Shown: positions 16,353 through 60,444, counted from the first letter of the stretch. The stretch is 64,000 nt of DNA from an uncultured bacterium (GCA_963827235.1 CAWHAE010000015.1:89230-153229); one strand, 5' to 3'. A program made the numbers and translations. Notes: generated from the letters alone by a model not told the origin.

Positions 16353-16414
16353 GTGGAGATTGAGCCCGAACGTCGGGTTCCCTTCAGTGGCTGGCTCGGA
16401 GCCCGATCCGTTTT
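16353..16414. repeat. 62-bp non-coding leader at the 5' edge of cassette B (copy at 19969-20030)
   Basis: 61/62 identical; internal hairpin GAGCCCGA-ACG-TCGGGT(T/A)C. Confidence 0.85.
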
Positions 16415-19968: not shown

Positions 19969-20030
19969 GTGGAGATTGAGCCCGAACGTCGGGTACCCTT
20001 CAGTGGCTGGCTCGGAGCCCGATCCGTTTT
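19969..20030. repeat. Second copy of the 62-bp cassette leader
   Basis: Matches 16353-16414 with one mismatch. Confidence 0.85.
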
Positions 20031-21337: not shown

Positions 21338-23497
21338 TCAATTCGGCATCGGGAGATTGTATGCGATCGTGGTGTACCCACGGCCCGAAGTATCGGTGTT
21401 GACTCCGTCCACGTTGAAGTTGTGGAGGTGGAACCGGACAATCAGCACCGGCTTCCCATTGAGGAAGTGAGTGTGCCGCGCGTCGGGCCTTGGGAAGCTC
21501 TCGTCATGTATGTCCGCGACGATGAGGAAGCCGCTAGCAGCGTATGTCTTCGTGGCCCATGAACTGAAATGCTGCTGCCCGCCGCTCCGGGAATCGTCAT
21601 ACTGGTTGTCGATCTCGACTGAGACCTCTTCGGGTGAATCCGGAAGCCCGATGTAGGCGATACCGAACAGTGCTGACAGGTAGGCACCGGACCAACAGTG
21701 ACTGAACAGGCACCAGGCGCCTCCATGCAGGGCAGGCCAACCCGGGGCGCCTGGGCGGGCAGCAGAGATAATGATGGTGCCCAATTCCACCTGGTTCTGC
21801 CGGCAATTGCAATTAGTCGCGATTGGGTTCTTGCTTAGCGTCGCTGATACGTTATCGTCGGTGAAGATAGTCACGTGCCTGAATATGCCATAAACATCCG
21901 AGTTAACTGAGAATGGCCCTGACCCGGAGGCGTTCGGTCGCGGCTGTGTCAACACGCCTACCAGGTCGGTTCGGCGCGTGACATGCCCCTCAATTTCACT
22001 ATCGGTCATGTAGAAGTTGTTGCCCAGGATACTCTGATCGGCGGCACTGGCCGGCTGGCCACAGACAGCCCTGAAGTAGCCGTAGGGCCTCTGCCAGAAG
22101 CAGCCCTCCCACTTCGCGAACGGGTTGGTCGACGAGGCGCAATTCGCCCTCGTACTGGCATTGACCCACGCCATGGACCCTTGTACCAAGTTGCCGTAGG
22201 CACGCGGGAAGTCGCTCTGCGAAAGGCTCCCATCTGATCGGTACTTCACCTCGACGGCGACGAGATCCATATGCCCCGGCAGACTCCCTCTGTAGGCGAT
22301 GAAGTCGGGACCGCGGGCGCTGTCGCCCTTCGCCAACAACCAGCCCATGCCGACCTGAGGATCGATCGTCCTGTCCCACTGATCAATTCGCCCGGGCTGC
22401 GCCGCACCAAAGTTGGGTCCGGAAGCGATCGAGTATCCGGCCTGCCGGTAAAGCTCTACAGCGCACAGCAGTGCGTCTTGCGATCGAGTAAGGTTGTTGT
22501 CCTCGACCTCTGAGTCGCCTTCAGGCGTGGAAGCCAACCCCGCCGCTGGCATAGATGAGGCAACGATCGACAGGCCGCTTTCGGCAAGCATGTCGCGCTG
22601 CACGATCTTCCCACTCGGATCCGTCGCATCGGTCGGCCTGTCCCCCGCATACCGGTATGGCTCGTTCGTCTGGTCGAGCAGCGGGTCCTCGCTCTCGAAC
22701 TGCCCCTCGCTGGGGCTGTACTCCCGTGCCCGCATGTCGTAGGTGCCGGCCGCCGCGTCGTAGTACTGCCCGGCGAAGCCGAAGGGCTGGCTGCCCTGCA
22801 TGCCGGCGAGCAGCGTGACGCCGCTGCCGGTGGACGTGTCCGGGTTGGCTCGCGCGTTGCCCCAGGCGTCGTAGGCGCCGGCGCCGATGGTAGCGCCGGT
22901 GGGGTCGGTGACCAGGCGCACGCTGCCCAGCAGGTCGGTGCCCAGGGTAGTGCTGCGCTGGGTGCTCAGCGTGTAGCCCGCTAGCGGTGCCTGGCCGCTG
23001 CCCGGGTCGAGGTAGGCGTAGTCGGCGTTGCCGTCCGAGACCAGGTCGGACATGCCGGCCTCCAGGTCCTGCGCGTAGTTGGAGAGAGTTGGCGTGCCGC
23101 TTGACGCGTCGTAGCTGCGCAGGCGGTCGCCCTGGCCGTCGTAGACGAAGGTGAGGTTGGTGGTCGGGCCGATGATGGCCACCAGCTCGTTCCGCAGGTC
23201 GTAGGTATTGGTGATCGTGCCGGTGGGTCCCACGCTGCCCGTCTGGTTGCCCGCGGTATCGTAGCTATAGGTGGTGGGCTCGCCCGGGCCGGCGTCCGAG
23301 GCTGTCGAGGCGCTGGTCAACTCGTCGGCGGCGTCGTAGCTGTTGCTGGTCACCGTGGTGGAGAGGGCATCGGTGGTGGTGAGCGTGACCGTGCTGGTGA
23401 TCACGGTGCGGTTGCCGGCGTCGTCATACTGGTCGACTTCGCTGCTGCCGTCCGGGTAGCCGGCGCTGGTCAGCCCGCCTGCCGGGTCGTAGCTGAA
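21338..23497 (-). pseudogene. Orphan Rhs cassette D (open frame) with PD-(D/E)xK domain plus extra C-terminal region
   Basis: Core homology from YDPAG; DPSG; GPDFIAY...VEVKY...QGS..W; no N-terminal Rhs region. Confidence 0.82.
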
Positions 23498-23732
23498 TCC
23501 AGACTCTACCACGTTATGCTGGCTCAGAGGTAGAACACTACCCGAGCACGCACGCGGACTTCGCCATCAGTATCAACAGTGCCGGAGACCCCTGTTTTCG
23601 CGCTTCTTGGCACCCGCAACGCCCGCGCCACACGCTCGCATCACAAACGTCGCTTGCGCAGGCAGCGTGATCGGAGGACCCACGAAGCCGCCGTATGACC
23701 CGCCTTTGCAGTACCAGTGTCCACTACGCGCC

Positions 23733-23861: not shown

Positions 23862-25581
23862 GGGAGCGCCTCAGCTTTGTGTAGCTGAGGCTGTTGATGT
23901 TCAGGCTGAGCGCCGGTGACTGACGGCCACGCGACCCCAATAGCCCTTCCCCTTGCCCCAGGGTTTGCCGGTGGAGACGATGCGCTGCGGTGCGATCGGC
24001 GGTGCTGCGCTGTCGGCGGGCGTCGGATCAGTCGGCGCTGGCGCCGGTGCCGCATCCACAGCCGGCCACAGGCCGGGCAACGCATCGGCGGCGGGGAGCG
24101 CGCGCAGGCGGGTGAGGGGTCGGCTGGCCCAGAACATCGCCCAGCGGCCGTGGCCGCTCTGGTGCAGTGCCCGCAGGTTGGCGATGGCCTGCGCGCCCTG
24201 GGGCGTCCAGCGCATGCCGGCCCCCTTGGCGCGCTTGCTGATCAGCTGCTTGCAGCCGCTCTCCACCGCGCCCGAACCAATGGGCAACTGGCGGGCCACG
24301 AAGCGCGGGTAGTCCAGCCGGTCCGCGTTGTCCGTGAAGTACTCCTCCAGGTTGCGGCGCACGACGTCGTGCGCTTCCGCGGACAGGTCGGGCCGCGCCA
24401 GCGGGGCCTGCAACGCGGCGAGCACCGGCGGCGCGCCCTGCTGCAAGAGGGTGTGCCGCTGTTCGGCCTACCAGGCACGCGCCGGCAGGCTGCCCGCGCC
24501 ATACACCGCGCTGGCTACCTCGGCCAGCTGCTCGCTGGCGTGGTAGAAATCAACGATCTCCACCACCGCAGTGCCCGGGTGGCTGAACTGCGTGCGCGCC
24601 TGCTTCCAGATCCAGCGCGCCCCGTCGGCAATCACGACCACTTCCTGCACGCCGCGCGTGAAGCCGGCGCGCCAGGCCTCCCGGGTCAGGCGCGGAAAGA
24701 AGGCCTCGCTGCACTCCAGCCCGGCGCAGAAGCCGGATGGCCCCAGCACGAGTGTCGCGCGTGCCGTCGCGGCATCTGCGCGCACCGCCGGGCCCAGCGC
24801 CGCCACGCGGCCCACCGTCATCTCGCGGTAGCCGTCTTGCAGGGGCGTGTGCACGCCATCGGTCTCCACCACCAGCCGCGTGGGCACCGCCTGCGCCGGC
24901 ACCGCCCATTGCGTGCGGTCGGCCTGCTCGTGCTCGATCAGCGCACCGAGCCCTTCGGCCAGCCGCCGGATGGTCTCCTTGGCCACGTGCACCCCGACGC
25001 TGCTCGCCACACTCGCGCGCGCCGCGGCGAAGGAGTCCTGCTGCGCCTGCTCGCACACCACCTGGGCCAGGCCCGGCGAGAGCTGGCCGGCGCCCAGCCC
25101 CAGCACACAATCCAGCGGCGCATGGCCCGCCTGGCAGCGCGCGCAGTAGAACGTGGGCCGCATGAACCGATACTCACCGACCAGCCTCAGCACCGTCCGC
25201 CGCCGCTCCCGCCCTACCAGGTGCAGCTGCCGGCCACACTGCGGACAGCGGCTCGCCACCCCTTCCGGCCCTTGCGCGCGCGCCTGCAGTACCACGCCCT
25301 CCACGGCGCTCCCTACCTGCCGCAGCACCTGCTGCAAGGCCCGCTCCCCGGCCAGCAAATCACCCGTCAGCAGCACTTCCACCGCCGCCCACAGCCCGGC
25401 CTCCAGGGCTGCCGCCCCGTCCGCCACCGCCGTCGCCAGAATCCGGGTACGCTCCATCGTGCCTCCTCCGCTCGGGCACGCGCGGTTGACAGATCGCTTG
25501 CCGTGCCCTGTAGCCGAGGAGGCTACCTCTTCGCGCGTTACTTTGCCTTAGCCCAGCCGACATCAATCGTGGGGCGCACCC
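23862..25581 (-). mobile_element. ISKra4/ISLre2-like insertion sequence
   Basis: Transposase inside; imperfect ends GGGAGCGCCTCA / TGGGGCGCACCC; ends approximate; no target duplication seen. Confidence 0.65.
23901..25457 (-). pseudogene. ISKra4/ISLre2-like DDE transposase with in-frame TAG at 24468-24470
   Basis: CPQC...CARC, ETDG, ADGARWIW, DFYHA, PIGSGAVESGCK..R.K.AGMRW; the two track ORFs are in the same frame. Confidence 0.85.
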
Positions 25582-25663: not shown

Positions 25664-26152
25664 TTAAGAGGGTGGCGCCCGCTTCACGACGGCAAGCTCA
25701 ATGGGACTGCCAGGCCAAAGCGCGATCCTGTAAGTATCCTCGCCCTCTAGGCCGTCAGCGCTGAGTGTATCAAGTCCCGCGAAACAAATCCGCACACGGT
25801 AATAACCTGGGCTCACCTTGACGATCAGGTCGTCGGTACCCATCTCAGTGATAACTAGCGTCCCCGACTGGATGTTGATACCCGTCTCGACGATGTGGTC
25901 CCACTGATCGACGTCTGTCTCCGGTTCTGAGGCGCAAAGCTCAACGTGAACAGGCACACGCATGTTCCTGGCGGTGGCGATATTCAGCAGCCCTGGCACG
26001 GCTATCACACGGTTGGCGAGGTTCTGTGGAGTCCAATCACACCATCCTTCGGTCAACTCGTCGTAGTCACGATGTCCATCCTCCAGGTAGAACTGGAAGT
26101 AGTCTGCGAAGACAGTCAGGTCAGCCCTGTACGTCACCCGACCTCCAGCCAC
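25664..26152 (-). CDS. Immunity protein, Nin/ComJ-like nuclease inhibitor
   Basis: Downstream of the NucA/NucB tip; YFQF..DWT...G...ARN...PGYY...DTY pattern resembles B. subtilis Nin as recalled. Confidence 0.7.
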   Translation of the reverse strand: MAGGRVTYRADLTVFADYFQFYLEDGHRDYDELTEGWCDWTPQNLANRVIAVPGLLNIATARNMRVPVHVELCASEPETDVDQWDHIVETGINIQSGTLVITEMGTDDLIVKVSPGYYRVRICFAGLDTLSADGLEGEDTYRIALWPGSPIELAVVKRAPPS

Positions 26153-26205: not shown

Positions 26206-29200
26206 TCACCGTGTAACGACGATCTTGACTCTCGTTCCATCGGGAAACCTACTCAAGAGACTGCGGATGGTCGCGCCGAGCCCGCGATTGTCCAGACGTT
26301 GTATCGGCCGAATACTGGCTCCCTTCCCGCCCTCAGCAAACATGGCCATGGGAAACTCATCCCGATCCATATTAGGGGTGGTTGCGGTGCCGGCAAGTGA
26401 CTCAGCGCGCCTCGCGGCTGCCCCGGCTCGGTCTATGGTGAGATCAGAGAACTGACCTGCACTGATCGCGTCCTCAATATGGCTCAGTGCCTGGTCATAC
26501 GCCGGATAAGCCTGCTTCGATAGGGTTAGGGTGACAACACCTGTTGACGGGTCGACGTTGACAGGACACGGCCCCGCGTTGTGCACCAGCACCTCGGCCA
26601 ACCCGACGAAGAAGTCGTGGTCGCTGGCGACGGTGAGGGTGTAGACGTGCGCCTCGCCCATGTTCCAGTGTATGCCCAGCACCGTGACGTCGCGCCCGTC
26701 TTCGGTGCGCAGCCGGTCACCTGCCTGCAACTGGCCGGCCTCAACCCAGCCGGGTTTGGTCAGGTCACGGCCGCTGTCCACATAGAACGGATGGTTGCTC
26801 GTCACCTTGAGTGTGCTGCCGTCGGAGAGTTCGAGGGCTAGCAGCGGCTTGATGCCGTCGTCGATCACCGCCAGCACGCGCTCAGCTTCGGGCTTGCCCT
26901 TGGCCGGGTCTTCCGCCAGGATGGTGTCGCCCGCGTGCAGGCTGGCGATAGCCACCAGACCGTGCTGGGTGGCCACACCGGTGTCCGCCGGGAAGCAGGA
27001 GCACGGCAGTTCGCCGGTGGTGCCGCCCTGCGCGGTGCACGTCGTGCCCGAACACGGTTCGGTCAACTGGGCATTGTCGAGCGCCTTGCCCGCTGCCTGC
27101 TCTTCTTGGACAGTGGCGGGCTGCATGTGGCCGGATGGATCCAGCAGTTCCAGGGTTGCCTTGCCATCGTCGAGCATGGTGCCTTGTGTGTGCAGCACCG
27201 CCGTTTCAGCCGCTTCCGCCGCAGCGTCGAAGCCACCGCCCGCCGCCGCACCGGCCGCCAGGCGCAGCAACGGCCCGGCCAGCTCGGGAGCAACGAAGGT
27301 GGCCACCGTGAACATGCGCACCAGCAAGCCCGTGCGTGGGTCGACGGCGACCTGGATGCTGCCCAAGGTCAGCGCGGCGAGCTTGGTGAGACCGGCCGCA
27401 GCCAGGAGGTCGACCTCCACACCACCGGGCAGCCAGGACGGTAGGTGCACGCCTGCCTTCTTGGCCGCGTTGAAGTAGTCGGTGGCCGCTTGCTCGGTCC
27501 AGTCGCCTACCTGGCCGATCGCGCAGGTGAGATTGGTGAGCGCATCGTGGCAGTAGCTAGTGCTGTCCGCGTAGACCAGGACGCCGGGCGCCTGGGGCCA
27601 GAAGGTTAGCGTCTTGCCGTGGTAGGGTGCCGTGAAGGCGGGGTACTCGTCATCCCCGCCGCCATGATAGTCAGACGGCCGGATCTCAGGAGTGTAGGGG
27701 CCGGCGGTTCCCACGAAGGGGATAGCGGCGCTGCCTGCCGGGCCTGGCTTGATGGTGGGGAACTTCCGCACCGTCCACGCGCAGCCACCGCCAACCTTCC
27801 ACAGGCACTGCTGGTCGGTGATCCATGCCACTCCAAACGTCTTGGCGTCGGCAATGAGCGTGTTCACGCCATTGATAACCGAGACCTGCTGTGTCAGCGA
27901 CTTGAAAGACTGAGCATGCTCGATGTCCCAGAGATAGGTCCCGCGGTCGGTGACGGAGATGATGTTCGCGTTCAGGGTCTTGCCGATGCTGGCCTTCGCG
28001 CAGGCCAGGGTGGGCACCGGCTTGGTGAACACGGGTACCCAGAACTCGGTCTCGCTGGCCCGCGCCACGGACCAGGCCGGCGTCTTGAGGGCAGTGGTGC
28101 CCTGGTCAGCAGTCGTGGTGCCGACGGCAGGCGACTGCGCTACTCTTGCCGCCGCGGCGGCCATCGCAGTCTCCTGCGCCGCGCTGACCGCCTCGGAGGG
28201 ATAGAGCACCACAGCGACCGCGCCCTCGATGGCCGACTGCTGCTCATAGTCCTGTGCGGTGGGCAGCGCCCATCCTTTCCCACTCGGGTCCGTCCCGTCC
28301 GTGGGCATGTTGCCGGCGTACTCGTAGGGGTCCAGCGTCACCGGCACCTGCGGATCGGCAGGCAGCGGATCCACGCTCTCGAACTGCCCCTCACTTGGGC
28401 TGTACTCCCGGGCCCGCATGCCATACGTGCCTGCCGCCGCGTCGTAGTACTGCCCCGCGTAGCCGAAGGGCTGGCTGCCCAGGAGGCCGGCCAGCAGGGT
28501 GGCGCCGCTGCCGGTGGACGTGTCCGGGTTGGCTCTGGCCTTGCCCCAGGCGTCGTAGGCGCTAGCCCCGATCGTAGCACCGGTGGGGTCGGTGACCAGC
28601 CGCACGCTGCCCAGCAGGTCGGTGCCCAGGGTGGTGGTGCGCTGGGTGCTCAGGGTGTAGCCTGCCAGCGGTGCCTGGCCGCTGCCCGGATTCAGGTAGG
28701 CGTAGTCGGCGTTGCCGTCCGAGACCAGGTCGGACATGCCGGCCTCCAGGTCCTGCGCGTAGTTGGAGAGGGTTGGGATCGATCCGGAGGCGTCCTCGGC
28801 ACGCAGCCTGTCGCCCTGCCCGTCGTAGACGAAGGTGAGGTTGGTGGTCGGGCCGATGATGGCCACCAGCTCGTTCCGCAGGTCGTAGGTGTTGGTGATC
28901 GTGCCGGTCTGTCCGGTGCTCCCCACCTGGTTGCCCGCGACATCATACGTATAGGTGGTAGGTTCGCCCGGGCCGACGTCCGAGGCCGTCGAGGCGCTGG
29001 TCAACTCGTCCGCCGCGTCGTAGCTGTTGGTGGTCACCGTGGTGGAGAGTGCACCGGTGGTGGTGAGCGTGACCGTGCTGGTGATGACGGTGCGGTTGCC
29101 GGCCGCGTCGTACGCATCCTGCTCGCTGCTGCCGTCCGGGTAGCCGGCATTGGTCAGATCGCCCGCCGGGTCGTAGCCGAAGCTGGAGGTGCCCCAGCTA

Positions 29201-32200
29201 TCGTCGATGGCCGTGCGCTCGCCCGCCGCGTCCAGCGTGTCCGTCTGGCTGAAGAGCACGGTGCCCGAGATGCTCACCGTGGTGTCGATGGTCCGGCCGG
29301 CGCTGTCGTAGCCCCACACCTGGCTGGTGCCGTTGGCCGCCTGCAGCCGCGTCAGCTTGCCTGCCTTGTCGTAGCCGGCGTGACTGGTATTGGGCGCCGC
29401 CCCCGGCTGGGTCAGCGTGCTCACCTGACCCGTCGCGTCGTAACTCCACGTCGCCGTCTTGCCGTCCGGGTAGGTCAGCGTAGTGCGCCGGCCCGCCGCG
29501 TCGTAGGTGTAATGCAGGTGCATGCTCACCTGGCCCGCTGCCGGCGTGCCCGCCGTGGGCGTGGCCGTGGCCGGGGTGACCGTGCCGCAGGTCGTGGCGG
29601 TGGCCGTGGGCTCCGCGGCCGGCAGGCTATCGGCGGCAATCTCCACCACCCGGCCTGCGTCCCGCATGGTCAGCCACAGGTTGCCGGCCTCGTCGAAGGC
29701 GATCCCCGTGGGCACGCTGCCCGCCGGCTGGTCGAGCTGGTACTCGCCGATCCTGCCGCCGGCGTCCAGCCGCCCCACCATGCCCGCCTGCTGCTCCGTG
29801 AACCACAGGCTGCCGTCCGGCGCTATCGCCAGCCGGTCCGCCCCCGCGTTGGCCGTGGGCACGTCGACCTCGCCGAAGGTGCCATCGGCAGTGACGCGGG
29901 CGATCTTGTCGTTCGCATACTCGTTCATGAAGACGGTGCCGTCGGGCGCCGCGACGAGGTAGCCGTTGCCGCCCTCGCCCGCCAGGGAGACCGGGTACTG
30001 GGTGACCTGGCCGCTGGCCGTGTCCAGCTTGCCCAGGTAGGCCGGCATGTCGCCCGTGTACGCCAGCGCGAACCACAGCACGTGGCCCGCTCCCAAGGCC
30101 AGGCCCATCGGCGACCCGGTGTCGCCGTCCTGCACGGGCAGGGGGTCGTCGGCCAGCAGGGTGCCGCTGGGGTCCACGTGCGCGATCGAGGAACTGCCCG
30201 TGCTGTTGACGGACAGCCAGAAGGTGCCGTCGCTGTCCTGCGCGATGCCGGCCAGCTCACCCAGGTCGTCGATGGCGGGCAGGGAGACGACCGTCTCGGT
30301 GCCGTCCTGCTGGATGTGGAAGAGCTCGTCGTAGTAGCCGGCCGCCCAGATGGAGCCGTCGGTGCCCAGCACCATGCCTTCGACGATGTCGTAGCCGGGC
30401 GCGGTGAAGCGGCTGACCGTGCCGTCGGCGGCCACGCGGTCGATCTCGTTGCCGTACTCGCCGTAGGTCCAGGCGTTGCCGTTGTGGTCGACCAGCATGC
30501 CGCGCGGACCGAAGCCGCCGGCCAGCTGGTAGGTGGCCAGGCTGGGCAGCAGCGAGTTCGTGTTCGGCGTGGCCGTCGGCGTCTCGGTCGGCGTGTCGGT
30601 ACTCGTGGGCGTATTGGTATCAGTTGGTGTGTCGGTGCTCGTCGGGGTGTCGGTCGAGGTGTCCGTATCCGCCGGCGTGTCGGTGATGGTCGGCGTATCG
30701 GTCGCCGTATCCGTGTCTGCCGGCGCCGTGGCACTCGTGCCGGTAGTCGCCGTCGGCGTGGAGGTCGGTGCCGATTCGCCCTGGCCTTCCTGGTAGTGCG
30801 CCGCGATCTGGCCCGGCGTCAGTGCATAGCGATAGACGGCCACGCCGGCAAGCTCGCCATGCAGATACGCTCCGCCGTCGGTGAGGTCGCAGGCGCCGAT
30901 CGTGAGCGGACCCACCAGCTCCAGGGCATGGGTCTGCGGCGTATCCTGGTCTACTTGCACGCCGTCCTGGTAGATCGTGCGCGTGGTGCCGTCGTACGTC
31001 GCTACCACGTAATGCCAGCTGCTGCTCATGTCGGAGACACTGTCGTCGTAGAGGTCGTCGTTCCACCAGTAGTTCGTCAGGCTGTTTTCGTTGTTCCCGT
31101 CGGTCGAGAACGCGTTGGTGTCGGAGTCGTTGTTGCCGTAGGGCCCGTAGCCGATGATGCCCTGGCCCGGATAGCCGTCCGGGTCCCCGCCGTTGTTGCC
31201 GTCCGGCGAGAGGTTGACCCAGGCCTCGAGCGTGTACGCATCATTGCCGGACGGCAGCCCGCTCACCTGCGGCACGCTGATGTAGCCGGCGTTGCCGTCG
31301 AACGCCGCCGAGCCGCTCATGCCGGGCGGCGCGGTCGTGGTGAAGGCCGCGGTGTTCTGCAGGGTTCCGTCATAGCCGTTGCCGGTGGCGTCGTGGGCCG
31401 TGGTGCCGTCGCTCTCGTCCAGCGGCCAGTAGGCCACGGCGCCGTCGGCCAGCACCGCCGACTCGTAGGCCGCGGAGCTCGGCGTGGCGGTGCCGGTGGC
31501 TGCCGGCGTGGCGGTGCCGGTGACTGCCGGCGTGGCGGTTGCCGTGGTGCAGGCAGGCTGCGGCGCGGTCAGCACCTCGATGCCGCTCACCAGCGGGTTG
31601 TCCGTCTCCCGCACGAAGCTGACCCGCAACTGGCCAAGCTGGTCCGCGGTCACCGGGAAGCTATCCACCAGCGCCTTGTCCTTGGCTCCCGCCGTGGCAT
31701 AGATGTCGAACTGGTCGAGCACCTGCTCGCCGTTCACGCTCACGCCGAACAGCCGCTGGCCGGCACTGTCCCAGGAGAGCTCGGCGAAGTGCAGCCGCAG
31801 GGTGTAGCTGCCGCCCGGCTGCAGATTGGGGATGGTGTAGGTAAAGGCACCCCAGCGCGCCGTCTGGTAGACCAGCGCCGGCGCCGCGTCGCTCACTCCA
31901 CTGGTGTCGATGGAATCACTCACGCTCTCCACGTCGCCGTCGGCGCGCTCGGCCCTGCTGTCGCCGCTGAAGCCGCCCACGTCGCCACCGCCCACGTTGA
32001 TCGCCGCTACCGTGGTCGGCGTCTCCACCGGCGCGCCCGTGCAGCTCTGCGGCGGGCCGGCCAGCGGGATCACCTCCAGGCCGCTGCTTTCCGCCTCGTC
32101 TAACACCGAGGTGTAGGCGACCGCGATCTGCCCGTTATCGTCGGCCTGCACGCTGAAGGCGCGCACCACCGCCGTGTACGGCATGCCCGCGGCGGCGATG

Positions 32201-35200
32201 ATGTCGAAGTGGTGCAGCACGGTGGTGCCGTTGACCGCCACGTCGAACACGCGCTGGCCCGGGCTGTAGAAGGTGTTGTCCGTGAAGTGCAGGCGGAGGG
32301 TGTACCAGCCGTCTGGGGTCAGGTTGGGAATGGTGTAGGTGAAGTCGCCCAGCCGCTCGGTCTGGTAGACCTCGGCCGGCGGCGGGTCGACCACGCCGTT
32401 GGAGTCGACGAGCCCGGTCTGGTTGCCGGTGTCGCCGCCGCTCACGTCCGTGTCGGCCACGAAGACGCCGGCTCCGTTGCCGCCGCTGTCGATGGCAATC
32501 ACGGGAGTGGCCGTGGCGGCCGGTGTCGCCGGCGTGCAGGCCGTCTCCACGGCCGGGAACACCTGCACCGCCGACACCTCCGCATTGTCGCTGATCGACA
32601 CGAAGTAGATGACGATATGCCCCCGGTCGTCGGCATGGGTCGCGAACGTGCGCGTCACGGCCACGTCCCGGCCGCCCGCCGCCCCTTCGATGTCGAAGTG
32701 GGAAAGCACCTGATCGCCGTTGATGTTCACGTCGGAGATGCGCCCGCCCGGCTGGTCGTAATACAGCTCGGCGAAGTGCAGCCGTACGCGGTAGGGAGCA
32801 TCGGCCGTCAAGCCGGGAATGTCGTAGCGGAAGTAGCCGCCGTTGCGCTCGTTCTGGTACACCTCCTGCGGCGCAGGGTCGGTCACCCCGCTGGTGTCAA
32901 TCGTGTCGCCCGTGCCGTCGGTGGCGCCGTTGGCATACGCGTCGTCGTCGAACAGATAGGCTCCGCTGCCGTAGCCGCCGCTGTCCAGGGCCACCACGGC
33001 CGTGGGCGTGGCGGTGGCCGGGCCCCCAACCGTCGCGCAGGGGGGCAGGGGGTCGCTGGGGAACACCTCGATGGCGCTCACCGTCGCCTGGTCCAGGACG
33101 GAGATGAAGCGCAGGGCCACCTGGCCATTGGCGTCCGCGGTCACCACGAAGGAGCGCGTCACCGCCGTGTCCTGCAGCCCGGCCGCCGCCCAGACGTCGA
33201 AGCGGTGCAGCTCGGTGACGCCGTTGGCCAGCACGTCGAAGAGCCGCTGGTCGGCTCCGCCGTGGTTGAACTCCGCGAAGTGCAGGCGCACGCGGTAACT
33301 GGCGCCCGGGGTCAGACTGGGCACCACGTAGGTGAAATCGCCGAACATGGCCGCCTGGTAGACGTCCTCGGGCGCCGCGTCGGCCACGCCGGAGGTATCG
33401 ATGGGGTCGCCCGTGTTACCCGCACTGCCGTAACCGCCGCTGGTGCCGGGGTCGCCGGCGAAGCGGCCGTCGGCGTCACCTGCCACGCGGAAGGCGGCCA
33501 CAGCCGTCGCGGTGGCCGCCGGCGTCGCCGGCGCACAGGCGGGGGCCGGCCCATCGGCCGGGAAGACCTCCAGACCGCTCAGCTTGGCGTTGTCCACGAG
33601 GCTAACGAAGCTCAGGTCGGATATGGCCCAGGGCGTCGGCCGTGGCCGGCACGTCGCGCGTGATCGCCACGTCCTTGCCGCCTGCCGCCGCCAGGATGTC
33701 GAAGTGGTGCAGCACGGCCACGCCGCCGGCATCCACGTCGAACAGGCGCTCGCCGGGCTGGTCCCAATAGATCTCGGCGAAGTGCAGTCGCACGCGGTAG
33801 TAGCCACCCGGGGTCAGGTTGGGCAGCGTGTAGCTGAAGGTGCCGAAACGCTCCGTCTGGTAGACCGCCTGCGGCGCCGGATCGGTCACCCCGCTGGTAT
33901 CGATCGCGTCGCCGCTGTTGCTGGTCGCCCCACCCTGGTTGTCTTCGTCCGCCGCGTAGCCGTCCGCCACGTCGCCACCGGCGTCGATCGCCAGCACCGC
34001 CGTGGGCGTGGGACTGCTTGGCGTGGGCGATGCCGCACAGACCGGCAGGGGGTCGGCCGCCAGCACCTCCAGCCCGCTCACCATGGCCGTGTCCCGCTCG
34101 GCGTCGAAGCGCACCGCCAGCTGGCCGTTGCCGTCGGCCTGCACCGTGAAGCCGCGCACCACCGCCGTGTCCGTGGCGCCCGCCGCCGCCCACACGTCGA
34201 AATGCGAGAGCACCATGCTGCCGTTGATGCTCACGCTGAACAACCGTTGCCCGGGCCCGTTGTCCCAGTCGTCGGCAAAATGCAGCCGTACGGTGTAGGC
34301 ATCGCCGGCGGTCAGGCCTTCCACGAGGTACGCGAAGCTCCCCGCCGAGTAGCGTGCCGTCTGGTAGACCGCTGCCGGCGCCGCGTCCGTCGCCTGGCCG
34401 GTGTCGATGGTGTCGCCGCTCGTCAGCACGTCGCCGCCCAGCCAGCCGCTATCCGTGGCGAACGACCCTTCCGCGTCCCCGCCGGCGTTGATCGCCAGGG
34501 GTAGAGTGGCACTGCCGGGTAGCACCAGCGCGCGCCGGATAGCCTTGAACAATGGCCGGGCTCCCGTGCGGACCGGCGTCGCGGTAGCCGTGCGTGTGCG
34601 CGTCGCGGTAGCCGTGCGTGTGCGCGTCGCCGAGACGGTGCGTGAGGCGGTCGACGTCCGGCTCGTGGTCGCCGTGGCCGTGGGTGTGCCGCTGGCGGTC
34701 GGCGTCTCGGTCGCCGCCGTGGGCGTGTCGCTCTCGGTGGACGTATCCGTGACCGTGGGCGAGAAATCGGCCGTGGGCGTGCCGGTCGATGTATCCGTGA
34801 CGTTGCTTGTCGCCGTCGGGCTGGGCGTGCCGGTGGTCGTGTCCGTCGAGCTCGTGGCCGTGCCGGTGGTGGTCGCGGCGTCGCCGGGCACGGACCCGGT
34901 AGCCGTGTCCGTCGCCGAGGCAGGTGCCGTGGCCGTCGCGGTGTCGCTCGTCTGAGCGGACTCCGTGGCGGTGTCGCTGGGTTGGGCGGGCTCGGCAGCC
35001 GTGGCCGTGGCGCTCGGCTCGTCCTGGGCGTCGCGCGCCCGGCCTGCCGGCTTGACCGCGGCCTGCGCGGCGGCAGCAGTGCGCTGTGCCGATGTCGCGG
35101 CGCGGCTCATCGCCGTTGCCGGCGCGTGATAGTCGGTGAGGCCGGCAGGCACCGCCGCTACGCCCCGGGCCGCTCCCTGCAATCCGGCAACCGTCGACCC

Positions 35201-38200
35201 GAGCGCCGGCACCCTGCCGCCGCTCGTCATCTGTCCGCTCGTGGAGCTCAGGGACCACACGCTGCTCAGGGTCTGCGCTGCGCTGCCGGGCCTGTTCGCC
35301 TGGCCGGTGGCCAGATGCACGCTCGCGAACGTGGCGCCAAGCTGCTGGGTGACCACGTCCGGCGTCACCCCGTTCTCCGGCGTGTCGCTCACCGTGGCAG
35401 TGGCCGTATCCGCGTCGCCGATCGTGGCAGTGTCCGTGCCGGTGCCGATCGCCGTCGCGGTGTCCGTCCCAGCTGCCAAGGTGGCGGTGTCCGTGCCGGT
35501 CGCCGTGCCCCCGGTGTCGCTGGTCGCCGTCGTGGTCGGGCTGGCCGTCCCGGTGGGCACGCGGCCCAGGCCGCCGGCCGTCTCGGTGATGTCCGTGGTC
35601 CGTCCCGCCGCGTCGTAACCCCAGCTCACCCGGCTGTCCTGCGTGCTCAGGCTCACCTGCCGGCCCGCCGCGTCGTAGCCGTGCTGCACGTAGGTGCCGT
35701 CGGCATAGCTCGTCTGCAGCGGCTGGTTGTCCGCGTCGTAGGTGGTGGTGGCCACGTGCCCGGCGGCGTCCGTCACCACGATGGTATTCCCCACCGCGTC
35801 GTAGCCATAGGTGGTGGTGCGGCCCAGGGGGTCGCTGCCGCCGGTCAGGCGGCCGGCCAAGTCGTAGCGGTTCGTGCGCACGTGCCCGTTGGCGTCGGTC
35901 ACCGCGATGGTGTGGCCCAGGGCATCGTAGCCGTAGGTCGTGCGGTGGCCCGCCGGGTCGGTGACCGCAATCAGCCGGCCCGCCGCGTCATAGGTGTTGC
36001 CGGTGGTGCGGCCCAGGGGATCGCGCAGACTGGTCTGCCGGCCGTCCTGGTCGTAGCCGTAGCCGGTGACGTCCTGCAGCCCGTCGGCGCTGCTCAGCAG
36101 CCTGCCCGCCGCGTCGTAGGTCTTGCCGGTCACCCGGCCGGCCCCGTCCGTGATCAGGATGGCATGGCCCAGGGCGTCGTACTGGGTGAGCGTGAGGTCG
36201 TTGTTGCCGTCGTTGCTGCCCACCAGGCGGCCGGCGGCATCGTAGGCGCTGGCCGTCCAGCGGCCGGTGGCGTCGGTGACCAGCACGGCATGACCCAGGG
36301 CGTCGTACTGGGTGCGGGTGGTGTGGCCCAGGGCGTCGGTGCTCGCCACCAGCCGGCCGGCGGCATCGTAGGTGCTGCCGGTGGTGTGGCCCATCGGGTC
36401 GGTGACGCCGGTCTGCCGGCCCAGGGCATCGTAGGCGTAGCGCGTGGTGCGGCCCAGGGCGTCGGTATCGGCGGTCAGGCGGCCGTCCAGGTCGTAGCTG
36501 CTGGCGCGGGCATGGCCGTCCGCGTCGGTGACGGCGATGGTATGGCCCAGGGCGTCGTAGCCGTAGGCGGTGGTGGCGCCCACGGCGTCGGTGGCGGCAA
36601 GCAGCCTGCCCGCCGCGTCGTAGCTGCTCGTGTTCAGGCCACCCAGGGCGTCGGTGACGGCGATGGTGCGGCCCAGGGCATCGTAGGCGGTGCGGGTCAG
36701 GTTGCCCAGGGCGTCGGCGCTCGCGGTCAGCCGGCCGTCGCCATCGTAGCTGCTGCGGGTCACCGCGCCGGTGGGATCGGTGACGGCGATCGTGTGGCCA
36801 AGGGCGTCGTAGCCATACTGCGTGGCCTCGCCCAGGGCGTCGATGCCGGCGGTCAGGCGGCCGTCGGGGTCGTAGGTGCTGGTCGTCACGTTGCCCAGGG
36901 CGTCGGTGACGGCGATGGTGTGCCCGAGCGCGTCGTAGCCGTAGACGGTAGGATTGCCCAGCGCATCAATGCTGGTGAGCAGTCGGCCGCCGGCATCGTA
37001 CTGGCTGTAGGCGGTGTTGCCGCCCGCGTCGGTGACGGCGAAGGTGCGGCCCAGGGGGTCGTACTGGTAGCGCGTGCTATCGCCCAGCGGGTCGCTGCTG
37101 GCGACCTGACGTCCATCGGCATCGTAGCTGGTGCGCCACACCTTGCCCGCCGCGTCCTTGCGCGTGGTCTGCTCGCCGTCGGCGTCATAGCCGTAGCCGG
37201 TCGCGTAGCCCAGGGCGTCGGTGCTCCCTGTTAGCCGCCCCGCCGCGTCGTAGGCGCTCTGCGTCACCCCGCCCAGGGCATCGGTGACGGCAATGGTGCG
37301 GCCCAGCGCGTCGTAGCCGTACTCGGTCGGATTGCCCAACGCGTCCGTGCTCGCGGCCAGCCGGCCGTCGTCATCGTAGCTGCTGCGCGTCACGTTGCCC
37401 AGGGCATCGGTGACGGCGATCGAGCGCCCGAGCGCATCGTAGCCGTAGCTCGTAATGTTGCCCAGGGCGTCCGTGCTGCTGCTCAGCCGCCCGCCCAGGT
37501 CGTAGCTGCTCCCGGTCACGTTGCCCAGGGCGTCGGTGACGGCAATGGTGTGGCCCAGGGCGTCGTAGCCGTAGCGCGTCGTGTAGCCCAGGGCATCGGT
37601 GCTCGCGGCCAGGCGCCCGTCGGCGTCATAGGTGCTGCGCGTCGTGTAGCCCGCCGCGTCCGTCACCGCGATGGTGCGGCCCAGGGCATCGTAGCCGTAC
37701 GCGGTGCCGTTCCCGAGCGCATCCACGCTCAGCGCCAGCCGGCCGTCGCCGTCGTAGCTGCTCGTGCTCACGTTGCCCAGGGCATCGGTGACGGCGATCG
37801 TGTGTCCGAGCGCGTCGTAGCCGTAGCTTGTGCCGTTGCCCATGGCATCGGTGCTCACCAGCAGGCGGCCGTCCGCGTCGTAGCTGCTGCTGGTCGAGCG
37901 GCCCAGCGGATCGCTGCGCCGCACCTGGCGTCCATCGGCGTCGTACCGGTAGCTCGTCGCCCCGCCCAGCGCGTCGGTGCTGGTCACCAGCTCGCCGTCC
38001 GCGTCGTACTGGCTGGCCGTCACGTTGCCCAGCGCGTCGGTGACGGCAATGGTGTGGCCGAGCGCGTCATAGTCGTAGCTGGTGCCGTTGCCCAGGGCAT
38101 CCGTGCTCTCGGCCAGGCGGCCGTCCGCGTCGTAGCTGCTCTGGGTCACCCCGCTCAGCGGGTCGGTGACCGCGATGGTGCGGCCCAGGGCGTCGTAGCC

Positions 38201-41200
38201 GTAGGCGGTCGCGTTCCCCAGGGCGTCCGTGCTCGTCTGCAGCCGGCCATCCGCATCGTAGGCGCTCCGCGTCACCCCGCCCAGGGCATCGGTGACGGCA
38301 ATGGTGTGCCCGAGCGCGTCGTAGCCGTAGCTCGTACTGTTGCCCAGGGCATCGATGCTGCTGCTCAGCCGCCCGTCCGCGTCGTAGGTGCTGCGCGTCA
38401 CGTTGCCCAGGGGATCGGTGACGGCGATCGTGTGGCCGAGCGCGTCGTAGCCGTAGGTCGTCGTATTGCTCAGGGCATCGGTGCCGGCGGCCAGCCGGCC
38501 CTCGGCGTCGTAGGTGCTGCGGGTCACGTTCCCGCCGGCGTCGGTGACGGCAATCGTCTGGCCGAGGGCGTCGTAGCCGTAGGTGGTGGCGTTGCCCAGG
38601 GCGTCGGTGCTGGTCAGCAGGCGGCCGTTGCCGTCGTAAGCGCTCTGCGTCACGTTGCCCAGCGGGTCGGTCACTGCGATGGTGCGGCCCAGCTCGTCGT
38701 ACAGGTAACCCGTGCCGCGGCCCAGGGCATCCGTCTTGCCGATCAGCCGCCCGGCCTGGTCGTACGCGTAGGCGGTGGCGTTGCCCAGCGCGTCCACGCT
38801 CTGCACGAGCTGGCCCGCAGTGTCGTACACGTCGTGCGCCGTGCGGTTGCCCAGGGCGTCGTAGCTATCGGTCAGCCGCCCGTCGGCGTCGTACACGCTG
38901 CGGCTCACCCCGCCCAACGGGTCGGTGACGGCGATCGTGTGCCCGAGCGCGTCGTAGCCGTACTGCGTCACGTTGCCCAGGGCGTCGATGCTCTCCGCCA
39001 GCTCGCCCGCCGTGTTGTACACACTCTGCGTCACGTCGCCCGCCGCGTCGGTGACCGCGATCGTGCGCCCCAGGGCGTCGTAGGCGTACTGCGTCTCGTT
39101 GCCCAGGGCGTCGGTCACCGCGATCGTGTGGCCCAGGCTGTCGTACTGGTAGCTGGTGGTGTGGCCCAGGGCGTCGGTCACCGCCAACGGCCGGCCCAGG
39201 GCGTCGTAGCTGGTATGTGTGGTGCTGCCGTCCGAGGCCGTCTCGCCGGTCTGGTTGCCCTGGTCGTCGTAGGAGTAAGTGGTCACCCGGCCCAGCGCGT
39301 CCGTGCTGGTCAGCAGGTTGCCCTGCGCGTCGTACTGGTCGCTCTCCTGGGTCTGCCCCGTGGCGTCGGTGCTGCTCAGCAGGTTGCCCTGCGCGTCGTA
39401 GGTGTAGCTGCTGGTGAAACCGCGGGCATCGGTGTGGCTGGTCAGGTCGCCCGCGGCGTCATAGCCGTTGGCGCTCAGGTCCCCCAAGCCGTCCACGCTG
39501 CTCGTCTGGTCCCCCTGATCGTCGTAGCTGCCGTTCGTGCTGATCGTGCCCTGGCTGCCCGTCTGCGTGCCGCCGATCGCGTGGTTGCCCAGGTCCACGG
39601 CGATCGTGCTGCCGTTGCCCAGCGCGTCCGTGCCGCTGCGCAGCCGCCCGTGGTCGTCGTAGCAGTCGCTGCTCACCCCGCCCAGGGGGTCGGTGACCTG
39701 GGTGCAGCTCGTCGCCCCCGTTCCCGAGCTGCCGCTGCTTGCTCCGTAGCTGAAGCTGTAGGATCGGCTTGAAGTCGGCAGGGTCACGCTGCTCACCCGG
39801 GCCTGGCTGTCGTAGGCGATCTGGGTCGTCTCGCCCGCCGCATCCTGAATCTGGGTCAGCAGGTAGCCCGTGCCCGCAGCGTTGGCGGCGTACTGCATCT
39901 GCTGGGTCGTCTGACTGTTCACTGTCACCGCAGTCAGGTTGCCGTTGTCGTCGTAGGAGTACTGGACGTCGGTGGGCCCGTGTGGGGGCGCGCCCGCGCT
40001 CTCTATCTCGCGAATCCGGCCAGTGGTGTCGCTGCTCACCTGCAGGGTGTTCGTATAGGCGTCGGTAATCGTCGTGAGCTGCTCGGTGCCCGGCGTATAG
40101 GTCAGGGCCAGCTCGGGGCTATCCAGGTGCTTGTGATCCTGACTGGTCACGTACACCAGTAGCCCCTGCTGATTGAACCAGGCTCCGCAACCGTTGTCGC
40201 AGTACTTGGTCTCGAAGAGGTCCGCCGTGGGGGAGTAGACCAGCGTGGCGTCGGCCGGCGAGCCCGGCACGGGCGTAAACGTCTCACCGCCGTCGCTGGA
40301 GGTGAAGGCGATCTCCTGCCCGTCTGAGAGCACGTGCACGGCCCCTGTGATTGGCTCAGTTGCGCTGCCCACACTGGCGCCCTGCGGGCTGAAGTCCAGC
40401 TGTTCGTCTACGTTGCTGGTCCAGCCTGGCCCAAAGGGCTGGTAGGCGAGCTGGCCCGCGCACCGGCTGTTGTAGGTGCGCTGCATGCTCAGCAGGCTCT
40501 CGCTGCCGCCCAGGCTCAGGTCGGCCGGCGCCTGGTAGAAGTAGTTGCCGCTCCCCGTGTCCGTCCCTGCCGCGCTGCTGCGGTCGCTGCCTGCCACCTT
40601 CGGCTCAGAGCCACCGCCCACGCCGATCTGGCACAGCGGCGGGATCGGCCCGTCCGCTTGCACCGTGATCGGTACCTGCACGCTGTCGGTATCGCTCTGG
40701 GCGTCCACGGCGGTGACCGTGGCCGTATACACCCCCGGAGGCACGATCTGCCCGGCGTAGCTGCCCGTGTCTGCCTTGCCGTCCCAGCGCCAGGGCGCGA
40801 TCTGGCCGGCCCGCACGGTGGAGGTGAACGTGCGCACGGTGGCACCCGTCGACATGGCGACCGTCGCCGTCAGCGCGAACGGGCCAGCGGCGCCGCTCAC
40901 CGTCGAGGTCAGCACCGTGGTCTGGTCGCCCTGCGGGAAGAAGCGGGCCGGTACCGCGCCTGCAAGCACCGCCACCGGGGGAACTGTTGCCACGATGGTG
41001 CCGCTGTCGCCGACCGCGAAGCAGACAGTGTCACTGAGGCAGCTGATACCCCTGAGTGCTCTGGTTGTCCCCGAGCCTCGACTGGTCCAGGTGCTGCCAC
41101 TGTCCATGGTGGCAAGGAGCAGACCGCCGCTACCGGCGACGAAGCAGGTGTCAACAGATGAACAGCCGACCCCATACGGATAGCCCGAGCCGTCCCACGT

Positions 41201-42610
41201 GTACCAGTTTTGCCCGCCATCGTGTGTTTCCAGGATCGAAATCGGCATCCATTGATCTGTGGCAGAACTTATCTTCGCGGCAGCAGTGTGCGAGGCTCGA
41301 ACCACGGATCCAGAAGGTAGGATGTTCCAACTGGTCGCGAAACAGACAGAAGCGCTAGGACAACTGATGCCGTCCAGGGATGTCCCGATGTATCCCCCTA
41401 GCATCGTCCAGGTATCCCCGGCGTCATGCGTGATCGCCATTGCGCCAAGCATGGCGACAGCGAAGCACGTGCTCACTGCGGGACAGCTGATCCCCTGGAA
41501 CTCTCGACTCATGGAAGCGGTATGCGAGGCCCATGTAGCGCCACCGTCATGTGTGACCACGAACACACCATCGATCCCGTACGGCAGCACGCCACCAACG
41601 GCAACGCATATCGTGACGGTGGGGCAACTGATGCTAGCTAGCGACCAGTTGCCCGACGTTGACTGCGTCCAGGATGCGCCTCCGTCGGTGGTAGCTAGGA
41701 TCGTGGCGCCGCCGAGCGCAAAGCAGGCCTGTACGCTTGGGCAGCTCACGCCCGCAAGGTCAGTGGTCACGCCTGAGTTGTCCAGCGTCCATGTCGCGCC
41801 ATCGTTGTGCGTGGACAGGATCGTGCCCTCGTTACCCACTGCGACGCAGCTGCTGGTGCCGGCAACGCAGCTAATGGCCGCCAGGCCGTTCGTCGTGCCT
41901 GAGCTCTGCGCCGCCCAAGGAAGTAGCTGGCTCGCAGCATCCGTCGATTGCACTGCCAGGCGTGCAGTGCCCAGGTCGTCGGAATTGCCCGAGCGCGTCA
42001 TTCCGTTGGCTCCGCCGCCGTCGCGTTGGGCTCGCACTACGAGAGCCACGCCGGCTTGGGAGGTGACGGTCGTGCGATCACCCGGCCGTACTGCCGCCAA
42101 TGCAACGCGGCTACCGTTGAGAGAGACAGCCGTCTCAGGCTCAACACGGAAGGCCGCAAGGTGTGTGCCCAGACGCACGACTACCGACGAAGCGGAGCGG
42201 CGCACCAGCGTCCCCACGGCCTGCTCCATGCGGTGTTGTTGTGCCGGTTTAGCGGCAGAACGGTGGGACAAGCCCGTGCTCGGTACGCGGTCTAGTCGAG
42301 ACAACTTCCCTGCCGGTCGGGTAGTGAGCAGCGGCGGCACCGGTCCCGGCTCAACGAGCCGCGCCACCTGCGCTTTGTGCGCAGCAACAGGCGCCACCCG
42401 CTTGGGTGCTGCAGGTGCGCTGTGCCGCGAGGTGGGCAGGTTCCAGGCGCGCGGTGTGGGCACACTCGTCCCTTGTACCGCCGCGGGAGCACCGTGATGT
42501 ATGGCGGAGGTTGGCCGCGCCACCTGGGCGCTTGCCTGGGCCAGCGGGCTCAGGCTCTGCAGAACCAGTACTGCAATCGTCGTCCATGCCAGAATCGGGC
42601 GTTTCCGCAC
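26206..42610 (-). CDS. Giant Sec-exported Rhs toxin (about 5,470 aa; +1 frameshift near 33620) with HINT and NucA/NucB DNase tip
   Basis: GGAGG-7nt-GTG start, signal peptide (RKR..LAQA); track ORFs 33602-42676 and 26206-33807 join within malectin 2; YD repeats; PTDGTDPSG; CFPAD...VHN; tip DRDEFPMAMFAEGGKGAS...DNRG. Confidence 0.9.
26578..26997 (-). other. Pre-toxin HINT (bacterial intein-like) domain of the main gene
   Basis: C1-FP, TxxHPF block B, VYTLTV..DH..FV...VHN; 140 aa; paralogs at 9743-10162, 58798-59217 and 62339-62758. Confidence 0.92.
31570..34500 (-). repeat. Six tandem malectin-like domains
   Basis: Six copies of AI(N/D)xGG...VYQTxR...YxVRLHF(A/T)(E/D)...RxFxV...SGxEV. Confidence 0.88.
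34576..34630. repeat. 24-bp tandem repeat (about 2.3 copies; TRTRTATA) in the Thr-rich linker
   Basis: GCGTCGCGGTAGCCGTGCGTGTGC x2 plus a partial copy. Confidence 0.8.
35590..39700 (-). repeat. YD-repeat array (63-bp units pairing into a 126-bp higher-order unit)
   Basis: Alternating YDALG(H/R)TIAVTDALG and YDADGRLxxSTDALG. Confidence 0.92.
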
Positions 42611-43875
42611 GGGACTACCTCCTCTGTTACCTCGCTGCGCGCACGCGCCGCTTTCTGCGGCGCCTCGGGCGGTCACGGCTGCCGGCCACGATCGGCCCGC
42701 TCTCCGGGCGGCGGACCGCCATCATGCCGGTCATGGATGAGCTGGTTCTCTGGCTGGTCCGCCGGCGCTCTGTGCCGGCGAGCGCGCGATGTGAGGGACG
42801 CGGACTCGGCGCGCTGGATGACTGCCTCGCCTGCGCGCCGTGCAGCACTGTCCCCGGCGTGTGGCTGCCTGCGCCCGGTGACGAGATGCGCAGCCGGCTG
42901 CGGGGAGAGCTACCGGCGGAGCCCGAAACCTGTGCGGACCCTGGCGGTGCGGTCGCAGAACCCCGCGCCTCGAGCGCACGCATCTTGCGGGCAAGGCGTG
43001 CCTGGCTACCGGCCCAGGCCGCGATCGGCTGCCTGCTCATAGCGCACATACCCCCACCACTGCGCGTCCAATGCGCGCGACGAGTGGCCGGCAAGCCACG
43101 AGCAGCGCCCTTCCCTGCGAGCGCGCGGCTGAACCGGCGACTCGACCTGCGTCGCGCTGTTCCGACTGAGCGGTCTCAAGGCAGCACGACAAGCGTGCAC
43201 GGTTGCACGAAATGCCGCAATGCTACAGAGGCGATGCGTCGCGGTCGGGCAAATCAAAACGACGCTTCCGGCACGCATCATAGTCCCGAGCGGCCCCGGC
43301 TGTCAAGCATCTCCCTCCGGATATCTTCGCATCTCATTCCGTCTCCCTCTGCCGGGTGGCGGGCACCGTGTGGGGATGCAGTATGACGAGCTCCACAACA
43401 ATAACTGTTTCAATTCGTTATTCGACGAATAAAGGGGGTTCTGCCGCGGCGCCACATTGGCGGGTCGATCGGTGGGACCTGCCCCCGCCGGCCGTGATAC
43501 GCCGCCGTAGACCGACCCACCAGCGTCGGCGAAGACATCGCGTGCACATGCCAGTCTCCGTCTGTATCCTATACATAACGTTCTATTTGGCCGCCGTGGC
43601 GCGGCAGATACTGGACACGCGGGCAGGTCTGCCGGTACCATGCCGCCGGTGCCGATGTCGCCCGTGCGCAGTGAGCCGGACGGCCCGGCATCGTGCGGGT
43701 CGCCGGGCCTGCGTTCGGCGGTCTGCTCGGGCCAGGGCGGGAATAGCGGGATCGGACTGAAGCTCGCAGTGCACGGGCCACCCGGTGTACGGGCATGCCC
43801 GGCACAGTGGCGCCGGCTTCGGCTGCGACGCGCGCGCATTCCACCCTGGCAGTGCTCTAGTGTGAGGATCTCCCC

Positions 43876-53135: not shown

Positions 53136-53142
53136 TCGTCCC

Positions 53143-55785: not shown

Positions 55786-55855
55786 TTGGCCAGGCTCGTT
55801 CGGCCATGGTGTTGGATCAAATGGCGGCCAGCCTGCCGACTGCTAGGGGTCTCCA

Positions 55856-60167: not shown

Positions 60168-60444
60168 AGGGCCGTAGCTCCCACAGGCCGCGAGCACCTT
60201 GCCGACGAACTGGAGAACGCTGTAGGACCGGAGTGCCCACGTCGACAATTGATAGGTTTGCCCCTTGCGTCCTGCATTGATGGTCGCCCGACAGAGGCGT
60301 CAACCATCACTGGGGCATCGTAGTAACACAGACGAATTCATGGCTGAGACCGCTCAAGGCCGAATCAAGACGTTGTTCAGGTCGAGGGAGGGCAGCGCCT
60401 ATTGGGCATCGCAAGGTGGGTGACTATGCGATATACCTGCCCCG

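Follow-up and report, generated by a model that had tools for sequence, protein, structure and literature searches.

The shells of Rhs, Tc and teneurin proteins are usually described as closed containers, with the parts for recognition lying outside the repeat array. Here we analyze a very large Rhs polymorphic-toxin gene on the minus strand of a 64,000-nucleotide stretch of DNA from an uncultured bacterium (GCA_963827235.1 CAWHAE010000015.1:89230-153229; hereafter the window, whose positions are counted from its first letter), in which the array of YD repeats stops, gives way to about 2,000 residues of stalks and folded domains and then resumes. Internal insertion in YD sequence is in itself already known. 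The YD sequence of the mosquito protein SGS1 contains inserted lectin, carbohydrate-binding module (CBM) and propeller domains, and the same source also notes the beta-propeller of TcB (PMC9935623). The premise of a preliminary description of this locus, continuous YD sequence with accessory domains N-terminal, was therefore wrong, since SGS1 and TcB carry internal domains. The domains of SGS1 are compact, occur at several sites and are packed on the shell, whereas here one site holds about 2,000 residues, with folded domains borne on low-complexity stalks and with a content that differs between close relatives; SGS1 is also a eukaryotic protein without a Rhs toxin/immunity locus. Bacterial teneurin-like proteins (TLPs; 9ifo, of which the shell part alone was compared) share with this gene the plan of a Sec-targeted YD-shell toxin with variable adhesion domains, but according to PMC13018210 these domains lie at the N-terminus, whereas here the variable module is inside the shell sequence. 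A full-text literature search, with subscription journals outside its scope, turned up no work in which Rhs and malectin are brought together, nor one describing a receptor arm internal to a bacterial Rhs toxin, and the words "insertion" and "inserted" are absent from a survey preprint on Rhs proteins of the T6SS (type VI secretion system; 10.1101/2024.02.26.582050). The new aspects here are an arm of this size, built as beads on a string with stalks, whose content is exchanged from one close relative to another and whose site coincides with a toxin-cassette boundary.

The gene extends over window positions 26206..42676, about 5,490 codons when a single frame change is read through, and is made of two long minus-strand frames: A (33602..42676, 3,024 residues) and B (26206..33807, 2,533 residues), the real part of the latter beginning near residue 62. 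Pfam and NCBIfam domains cover it from end to end. The YD array halts at 35570, closing with the motif WGYDAAGRTTDITETAGG (35623..35570), and restarts at 29523, reopening with the motif HLHYTYDAAGRR..., which starts at 29520; between them lies an insert of about 2,018 residues, again with the frame change read through. Both motifs were found where the preliminary description had put them, and its list of inserted domains (stalk, six malectins, LamG, second stalk, Vgb-like propeller) is borne out by Pfam and by composition, with PDB matches for malectin and for the propeller. One frame change inside malectin 2 had been overlooked. The features that define the insert and its flanks are the following:

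35570..40369, minus strand: N-terminal YD array, about 1,600 residues, 37 RHS_repeat stretches.
34505..35569, minus strand: stalk 1, 355 residues, T/A/S-rich (T 26%, A 21%, S 10%).
31513..34504, minus strand: six malectin domains, Pfam Malectin, two stretches in frame A (E 4.4e-40) and four in frame B (E 1e-72).
33602..33640, minus strand: site of the single frame change, frame A readable to about 33617 and frame B from about 33624, with the stop of A at 33602-33604.
30778..31473, minus strand: LamG domain (Laminin_G_3), Pfam E 2.2e-17.
30553..30777, minus strand: stalk 2, 75 residues, T/P/D-rich (T 43%, P 15%, D 13%).
29608..30552, minus strand: Vgb-lyase-like beta-propeller, Pfam (PF24684) E 4.5e-36.
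29524..29607, minus strand: T/A-rich linker of 28 residues back into the YD array, read from the translation.
28270..29523, minus strand: C-terminal YD module with Rhs-associated core, 418 residues (TIGR03696, YD_repeat_2x).

No Pfam family matched stalk 1. All six malectin stretches exceed the gathering score of PF11721 and are 45-54% identical to one another, and a sequence search of the PDB matched the sixth to FERONIA and malectin chains (E 8.5e-9 to 3e-7). The LamG domain found no match in the PDB sequence search and is 44-47% identical to two LamG domains located at the same site in a relative, P0023. The propeller matched 2qc5 (E 1.2e-39) and 2z2n (E 4.4e-35), streptogramin B lactonase/Vgb, by sequence; this is an assignment to the fold, and lyase activity is not claimed.

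To locate the point of insertion, 100 Rhs proteins free of interruption were each trimmed to the 950 residues that finish at the core end, and a profile hidden Markov model was built from them; these 100 were retained from 120 matches after dropping about 14 without a full core match, five members of the family itself and one that was too short. On this profile the N-terminal array ends at position 578 and the C-terminal module begins at 579 and spans 579-959, while four relatives end at 558-578 and resume at 559-580. With no profile position missing between the two parts, this comparison of sequences gives good support to a clean insertion between two neighboring residues of the ancestral array. 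Within its YD unit the break falls at a turn of the "D-x-x-G" type, and the core end follows 384 profile positions later. The core of the C-terminal module aligns with the C-terminal end of solved Rhs chains; against PDB sequences, only the last ~230 residues of the module align unambiguously and its repeats align at many registers, and for this reason the profile test was used instead.

Two structure predictions bear on whether the sequences at both sides of the break belong to one shell. The first is an AlphaFold2 model of residues 2228-3268 of P0002, a natural relative with the same flanks and only a PT-rich linker of ~130 residues at the site. This model reached a mean predicted local distance difference test score (pLDDT) of 85.3 and a predicted template modelling score (pTM) of 0.81; its linker (residues 496-611), equivalent to stalk 1, has a pLDDT below 50 and is flanked by strands 477-484 and 619-627. 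It superposes whole on 8qja_B (Z 37.8, root-mean-square deviation [rmsd] 2.2 Å, 820 residues aligned over model 2-1033), with 9ifo_A tying for the top match (Z 38.1, rmsd 3.9 Å, 823 aligned) and Tse15 8uxt close to them (Z 35.2, rmsd 3.0 Å, 864 aligned). The second is a two-chain fold of the gene's own halves (A 1871-2372 with B 1425-1850), which scored 0.88 in each of three runs, the best of three controls scoring 0.00. Of 157 solved complexes, 116 attain the 0.88 mark, as do 2 of 215 mismatched pairs; these counts are only rough because own alignments were used. The runs showed at least 96% contact agreement and a partner pLDDT of at least 88, and the tightest pairs (493-7, 495-5, 491-9 and 489-11) link the strand that leads into the insert with the strand that follows it, in the manner of an antiparallel ladder. 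One continuous shell in which the flanking strands are paired as a hairpin is thus predicted, in the sense of a likeness to a continuous shell and not of a proof; the two-chain result may reflect likeness to known shells, because solved Rhs shells exist. The claim that the arm loops out of a single hairpin turn finds agreement in the profile (578|579) and in both predictions, which pair the flanking strands.

The relatives indicate that this site is used in more than one way. All nine proteins with at least 56% identity to the end of the YD array (P0002, P0003, P0004, P0023, P0123, P0126, P0170, P0171 and P0252) have their interruption at this same position; in every one of them the flanks of the break are conserved and the frame is intact across the same architecture, and the break motif is shared by relatives from other samples. 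At the site they carry:

P0002, P0004, P0252: PT-rich linker only.
P0003 (loci L029 and L046): linker and DUF7948/SBBP propeller.
P0023: two LamG domains.
P0123 (locus L044), P0126: Ig-like domains.
P0170, P0171: unnamed domain of ~270 residues.

None of these relatives has malectins at the site, and a protein search covering lengths to 5,000 residues found the malectin-LamG-Vgb insert in no other protein. Malectins occur elsewhere in P0121 (4,570 residues), where all seven lie N-terminal of the YD region, and malectin-like parts are present near the start of the YD region in P0160. The family is rare: a scan of genome contigs from 185,579 species genomes gave 15 loci, only one of them close with this query (L029, 60% identity), and a metagenome scan gave 16 loci, five of them close (L044-L048, 56-67%), L046 repeating L029. 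Taken at the level of sequence, the content of the site is variable, and the site appears to be a family-wide exchange point filled with other binding modules or with linker only. Two side observations concern the relatives. In P0003 (L029:2944-8394), the DUF7948 and SBBP module at the internal site duplicates the protein's own N-terminal module. In P0017, around residues 900-980, an extra PT-rich stretch occurs inside the C-terminal YD module, where the window protein has a short T-rich loop, and this may be a second permissive loop.

With the shell model in hand, the gene can be compared with the known YD-shell systems. Besides the insertion of domains in YD sequence, the model resembles SGS1 in structure (8fjp_A; Z 25.9, rmsd 3.3 Å, 671 aligned). 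The BC cocoon of Tc toxins (TcB-TcC; 4o9x, 4igl, 5kis) is alike in having a shell made from two sequence parts, a propeller interruption and cargo after the core, and the model matches 4o9x with Z 30.6 and the TcC chains with Z ~31. However, the TcC chains, from their residues 6-8, start at model positions 314-335, that is 150-170 residues N-terminal of this family's break at ~485; because of this the break is not the TcB/TcC boundary, and a Tc-like reading on that basis was rejected. TcdB_toxin_midN (PF12256) had no match in the genome, which is 95.9% complete, and neither had VRP1 (PF03538), for which the control search matched nowhere either and the result is uninformative. Structurally, the model is matched best (Z 30-38, 820-864 residues) by Rhs effectors linked to the T6SS (8qja, 8qjb-d, Tse15 8uxt, Tse5 8cp6, RhsP 8h8a/b, RhsA 7q97 and Rhs1 7pq5), which share the YD shell, a DUF6531/SpvB-like start, the Rhs-associated core and downstream orphan cassettes. 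In the AlphaFold2 model of the upstream part of the array (A 700-1899), residues 12-301 resemble the SpvB N-terminal domain (6p0x; Z 12.1, rmsd 3.5 Å, 199 aligned). Unlike these effectors, the gene has a Sec-type N-terminus, an array about twice as long and an interrupted shell sequence, and no PAAR, VgrG or dedicated secretion-system domain was seen among its domains.

We consider it fairly probable that the gene encodes one very large Rhs/YD toxin whose shell is continuous and from which a probably carbohydrate-binding arm loops out at an exchange site. Of this reading, the anatomy, the insertion at a single point and the variable content in relatives are established by the sequence comparisons above, and the glycan binding and targeting by the arm are what we infer from the action of malectin and LamG domains elsewhere. 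In this sense, one continuous beta-sheet shell would be made up of the final ~480 residues of the N-terminal array together with the C-terminal module of 418 residues. The chain would leave it at the "D-x-x-G"-type turn, pass through stalk 1, presumably disordered, the six malectins, LamG, the second stalk and the Vgb-like propeller, and re-enter the next shell strand through the 28-residue linker. The arm would then be a flexible, multivalent and probably carbohydrate-binding tether, which may keep the toxin container attached to a surface rich in glycans, most probably the target cell's envelope.

The rest of the gene follows the plan of a polymorphic toxin. Along frame A, a Sec-type signal-like N-terminus is followed by a BNR/Ycf48-like propeller, a FlgD Ig-like domain, DUF6531, the 37 RHS_repeat stretches (Pfam, E 2e-270), the stalk and two malectins; along frame B come four malectins, Laminin_G_3, the T/P/D stalk, the Vgb-lyase-like propeller, three RHS repeats and the Rhs-associated core, after which 422 residues without family match lead to a pretoxin HINT and a marginal NucA/NucB DNase match. 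TIGR01643 (YD_repeat_2x, NCBIfam) is also matched in the gene, and regular units of 42 residues (126 nucleotides), about 22 of them, occupy 36294-39115 of the N-terminal array (Tandem Repeats Finder: period 126, 22.4 copies, 69% matches). TIGR03696 (Rhs_assc_core) matches residues 323-415 of the C-terminal module (E 2.1e-15, 57 bits for a cut-off of 32.5); of the autoproteolytic release of C-terminal cargo that belongs to such toxins, the sequence shows the conserved core. The remaining features of the gene and of the window are:

42497..42676, minus strand: N-terminus with a Sec-type signal-like segment (basic RKRP, hydrophobic run, A-S-A), read from the translation.
40577..41959, minus strand: BNR/Ycf48-like beta-propeller and FlgD Ig-like domain (Pfam PSII_BNR E 4.1e-8, FlgD_ig E 3.8e-5, BNR E 4.5e-5).
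40382..40561, minus strand: DUF6531, start/plug region of Rhs shells (Pfam E 2.5e-9).
27004..28269, minus strand: post-core region, 422 residues, no named family (no Pfam match).
26209..27003, minus strand: pretoxin HINT and, marginally, a C-terminal NucA/NucB-like DNase tip (Pfam, NCBIfam).
25664..26152, minus strand: open reading frame (ORF) of 162 residues directly downstream, candidate immunity gene by position only.
6431-7418, 11499-13099, 15208-16362, 18737-19978, 22607-23503, minus strand: orphan fragments homologous to the C-terminal part of the main gene.
53138-53707, 55855-59256, 60404-61210, 62339-62920, plus strand: orphan fragments homologous to the C-terminal part of the main gene.

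PSII_BNR scores 33.3 bits, above its 27-bit cut-off, while FlgD_ig (24 bits) and BNR (23.3 bits) remain below theirs, also of 27 bits. The signal-like segment, as read from the translation, suggests that the toxin is probably exported by the Sec system. The post-core region is 25-27% identical to the same region of P0003, P0017 and P0171 (BLAST), and an Atlas search gave weak leads only (scores 0.83-0.86; PT-TG 0.86), which are not counted as evidence. The PT-HINT match is clear (E 1.2e-18), with intein_Nterm at E 3.3e-5, and DNase_NucA_NucB (E 1.2e-4, 23.0 bits) falls just below its 23.8-bit cut-off. No Pfam or NCBIfam family matched the candidate immunity ORF. The host is probably a high-GC bacterium of the Chloroflexota, judging from the source names of some matches and from same-phylum relatives with small complete genomes.

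The nine orphan fragments in the window match frame B residues 1134-2471 with 45-97% identity and lie on both sides of the gene and in both orientations. Two of the nine begin at the module start, give or take ~3 residues, and another three begin within the Vgb-like propeller. The two at the module boundary (16362-16390 and 19978-20010, minus strand) are preceded by near-identical sequence, in which a stop stands seven codons ahead of the point where homology sets in, and two of those starting in the propeller (13099, minus; 55855, plus) share one upstream sequence. These shared upstream sequences look like repeated recombination joints, and the module boundary may also delimit exchangeable C-terminal toxin cassettes, as those two of the nine orphans suggest. 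It is tentatively possible that the family diversifies in two dimensions, the shell hairpin serving as display site for exchanged arms and the same boundary starting an exchangeable shell-plus-toxin cassette that also lives alone as a small secreted protein.

Other observations were made on the locus and the genome. Two ORFs (23901-25547, minus strand) separate the candidate immunity gene from the first orphan, one of them matching Pfam UPF0236 (E 2.7e-7), a family that we take to be ISKra4-type transposases; 23901-25547 would then presumably be an insertion sequence inside the Rhs locus. Another contig of the genome (G000:C12:1-6453) opens with an orphan core fragment, followed by a copy of the propeller and C-terminal module that is 79% identical and has internal stops, and the locus may continue to it across the contig break. 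A further Rhs-like frame of 2,896 residues is found at G000:C7:50350-59037, in which ~1,600 residues follow the core; by the look of the translation they are Ig-like, propeller and carboxypeptidase-regulatory-like repeats and not a short toxin.

Several observations weigh against a single continuous shell. The C-terminal module also occurs without the N-terminal YD array: it stands alone after a signal-like hydrophobic N-terminus in a genome of the same genus (G003:C81), among mur/fts cell-wall synthesis genes and with no Rhs upstream, and in two metagenome contigs (L047 and L048), and in P0017 it follows unrelated domains. Because of this occurrence without the array, the module may fold and act alone. 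In four genomes of the same genus, 83-92% complete, no close N-terminal array was found (identity at most 47%). Both folds rely on alignments dominated by uninterrupted Rhs proteins, and solved shells are known to the models. An AlphaFold2 model of the 1,200 residues upstream (A 700-1899) is locally confident (pLDDT 85-92) and globally uncertain, with a pTM of 0.37 and best superpositions at an rmsd of ~29 Å. By comparison of models, the last 480 residues of the array and the module already fill a canonical T6SS-type shell, so that ~1,100 further repeat residues, in an array about twice the canonical length, are left over. Finally, the frame is broken once. From the stand-alone modules, the coupling in P0017, the orphan cassettes that begin at the module boundary, the poor model of the array alone and the fact that every connection is a long flexible linker, one could propose two autonomous YD bodies, the N-terminal array being a structure of its own (a fibre, or else a shell that is empty or long), the 418-residue module a small toxin cassette, and the insert an inter-domain region left by fusion. 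We hold this to be unlikely: the profile is contiguous at 578|579, the short-linker P0002 folds as one shell that fits 8qja over 820 residues, the gene's own halves are paired far above the controls, and the sequences at the break are conserved in the nine relatives. On the other hand, if the single-shell anatomy is accepted, the arm could instead tie the toxin container to polysaccharide of the producer's own wall, sheath or matrix. Sec-exported Rhs relatives such as WapA are known to anchor in the wall, and the gene combines a Sec-type N-terminus with the lack, among its domains, of a dedicated secretion system. TLPs also carry surface-anchoring domains (PMC13018210). However, the site holds five kinds of folded module or none, and three relatives have no folded module at all; because the content differs between close relatives, diversifying target recognition fits better than a conserved self-anchor, which we regard as doubtful.

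The state of the gene itself also has to be considered. Frames A and B overlap at 33602-33807, and malectin 2 begins in A and ends in B. If the frame change were real, only a toxin-less product of 3,024 residues would be possible and the architecture would be a fossil, a view that is favored by the stop at 33602-33604, by a site that is not a long homopolymer and by a locus full of broken orphan fragments. However, rpoB of the same assembly (G000:C14, ~446084-449934) is scattered over at least four stretches free of stops, which alternate in frame, and the frame of rpoC is broken as well (region G000:C14:441169-449934). Since both are frame-broken, the change in malectin 2 probably arose as an error of sequencing, and as indel errors are frequent in this assembly, internal stops in any gene of the genome should be read with care. 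The remaining 16.4 kb are open in frame with a uniform GC content at third codon positions (GC3; 0.87-0.88 over frames A and B), and the nine relatives are intact across the same architecture, so that a dead gene seems quite improbable to us. The preliminary description had named separate genes for the two halves as what would tell against it; the frame change touches this point, but the break lies within a malectin domain, away from both YD boundaries, and in an assembly where rpoB and rpoC are also shifted. A chimera of assembly, in which a YD gene was joined to a lectin gene, would be in line with the error-prone assembly and with the YD-stalk-malectin junction, which occurs only once in the genome. 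It is nevertheless very improbable, as 650 residues beyond the YD end are still open in frame, relatives from other samples show this motif at their break as well, LamG is present at the same site in P0023, and the second junction, from propeller to YD, has further copies elsewhere in the genome.

Under the reading of one shell with a looped-out arm, this gene and its nine relatives point to one defined turn where anything between a bare ~130-residue linker and a multi-domain arm of 2,000 residues is tolerated. They offer a natural series for asking how the Sec-exported Rhs toxins of bacteria lacking a T6SS reach their targets and stay attached to them, and how much interruption a YD shell can bear. 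Furthermore, as the site of the arm appears to be the boundary of an exchangeable toxin cassette, it suggests how recognition and toxin modules may be reshuffled in nature. If the family does diversify in the two dimensions proposed above, the YD shell would be a two-piece module instead of an indivisible container, with a seam that evolution would use to re-pair recognition, container and toxin.

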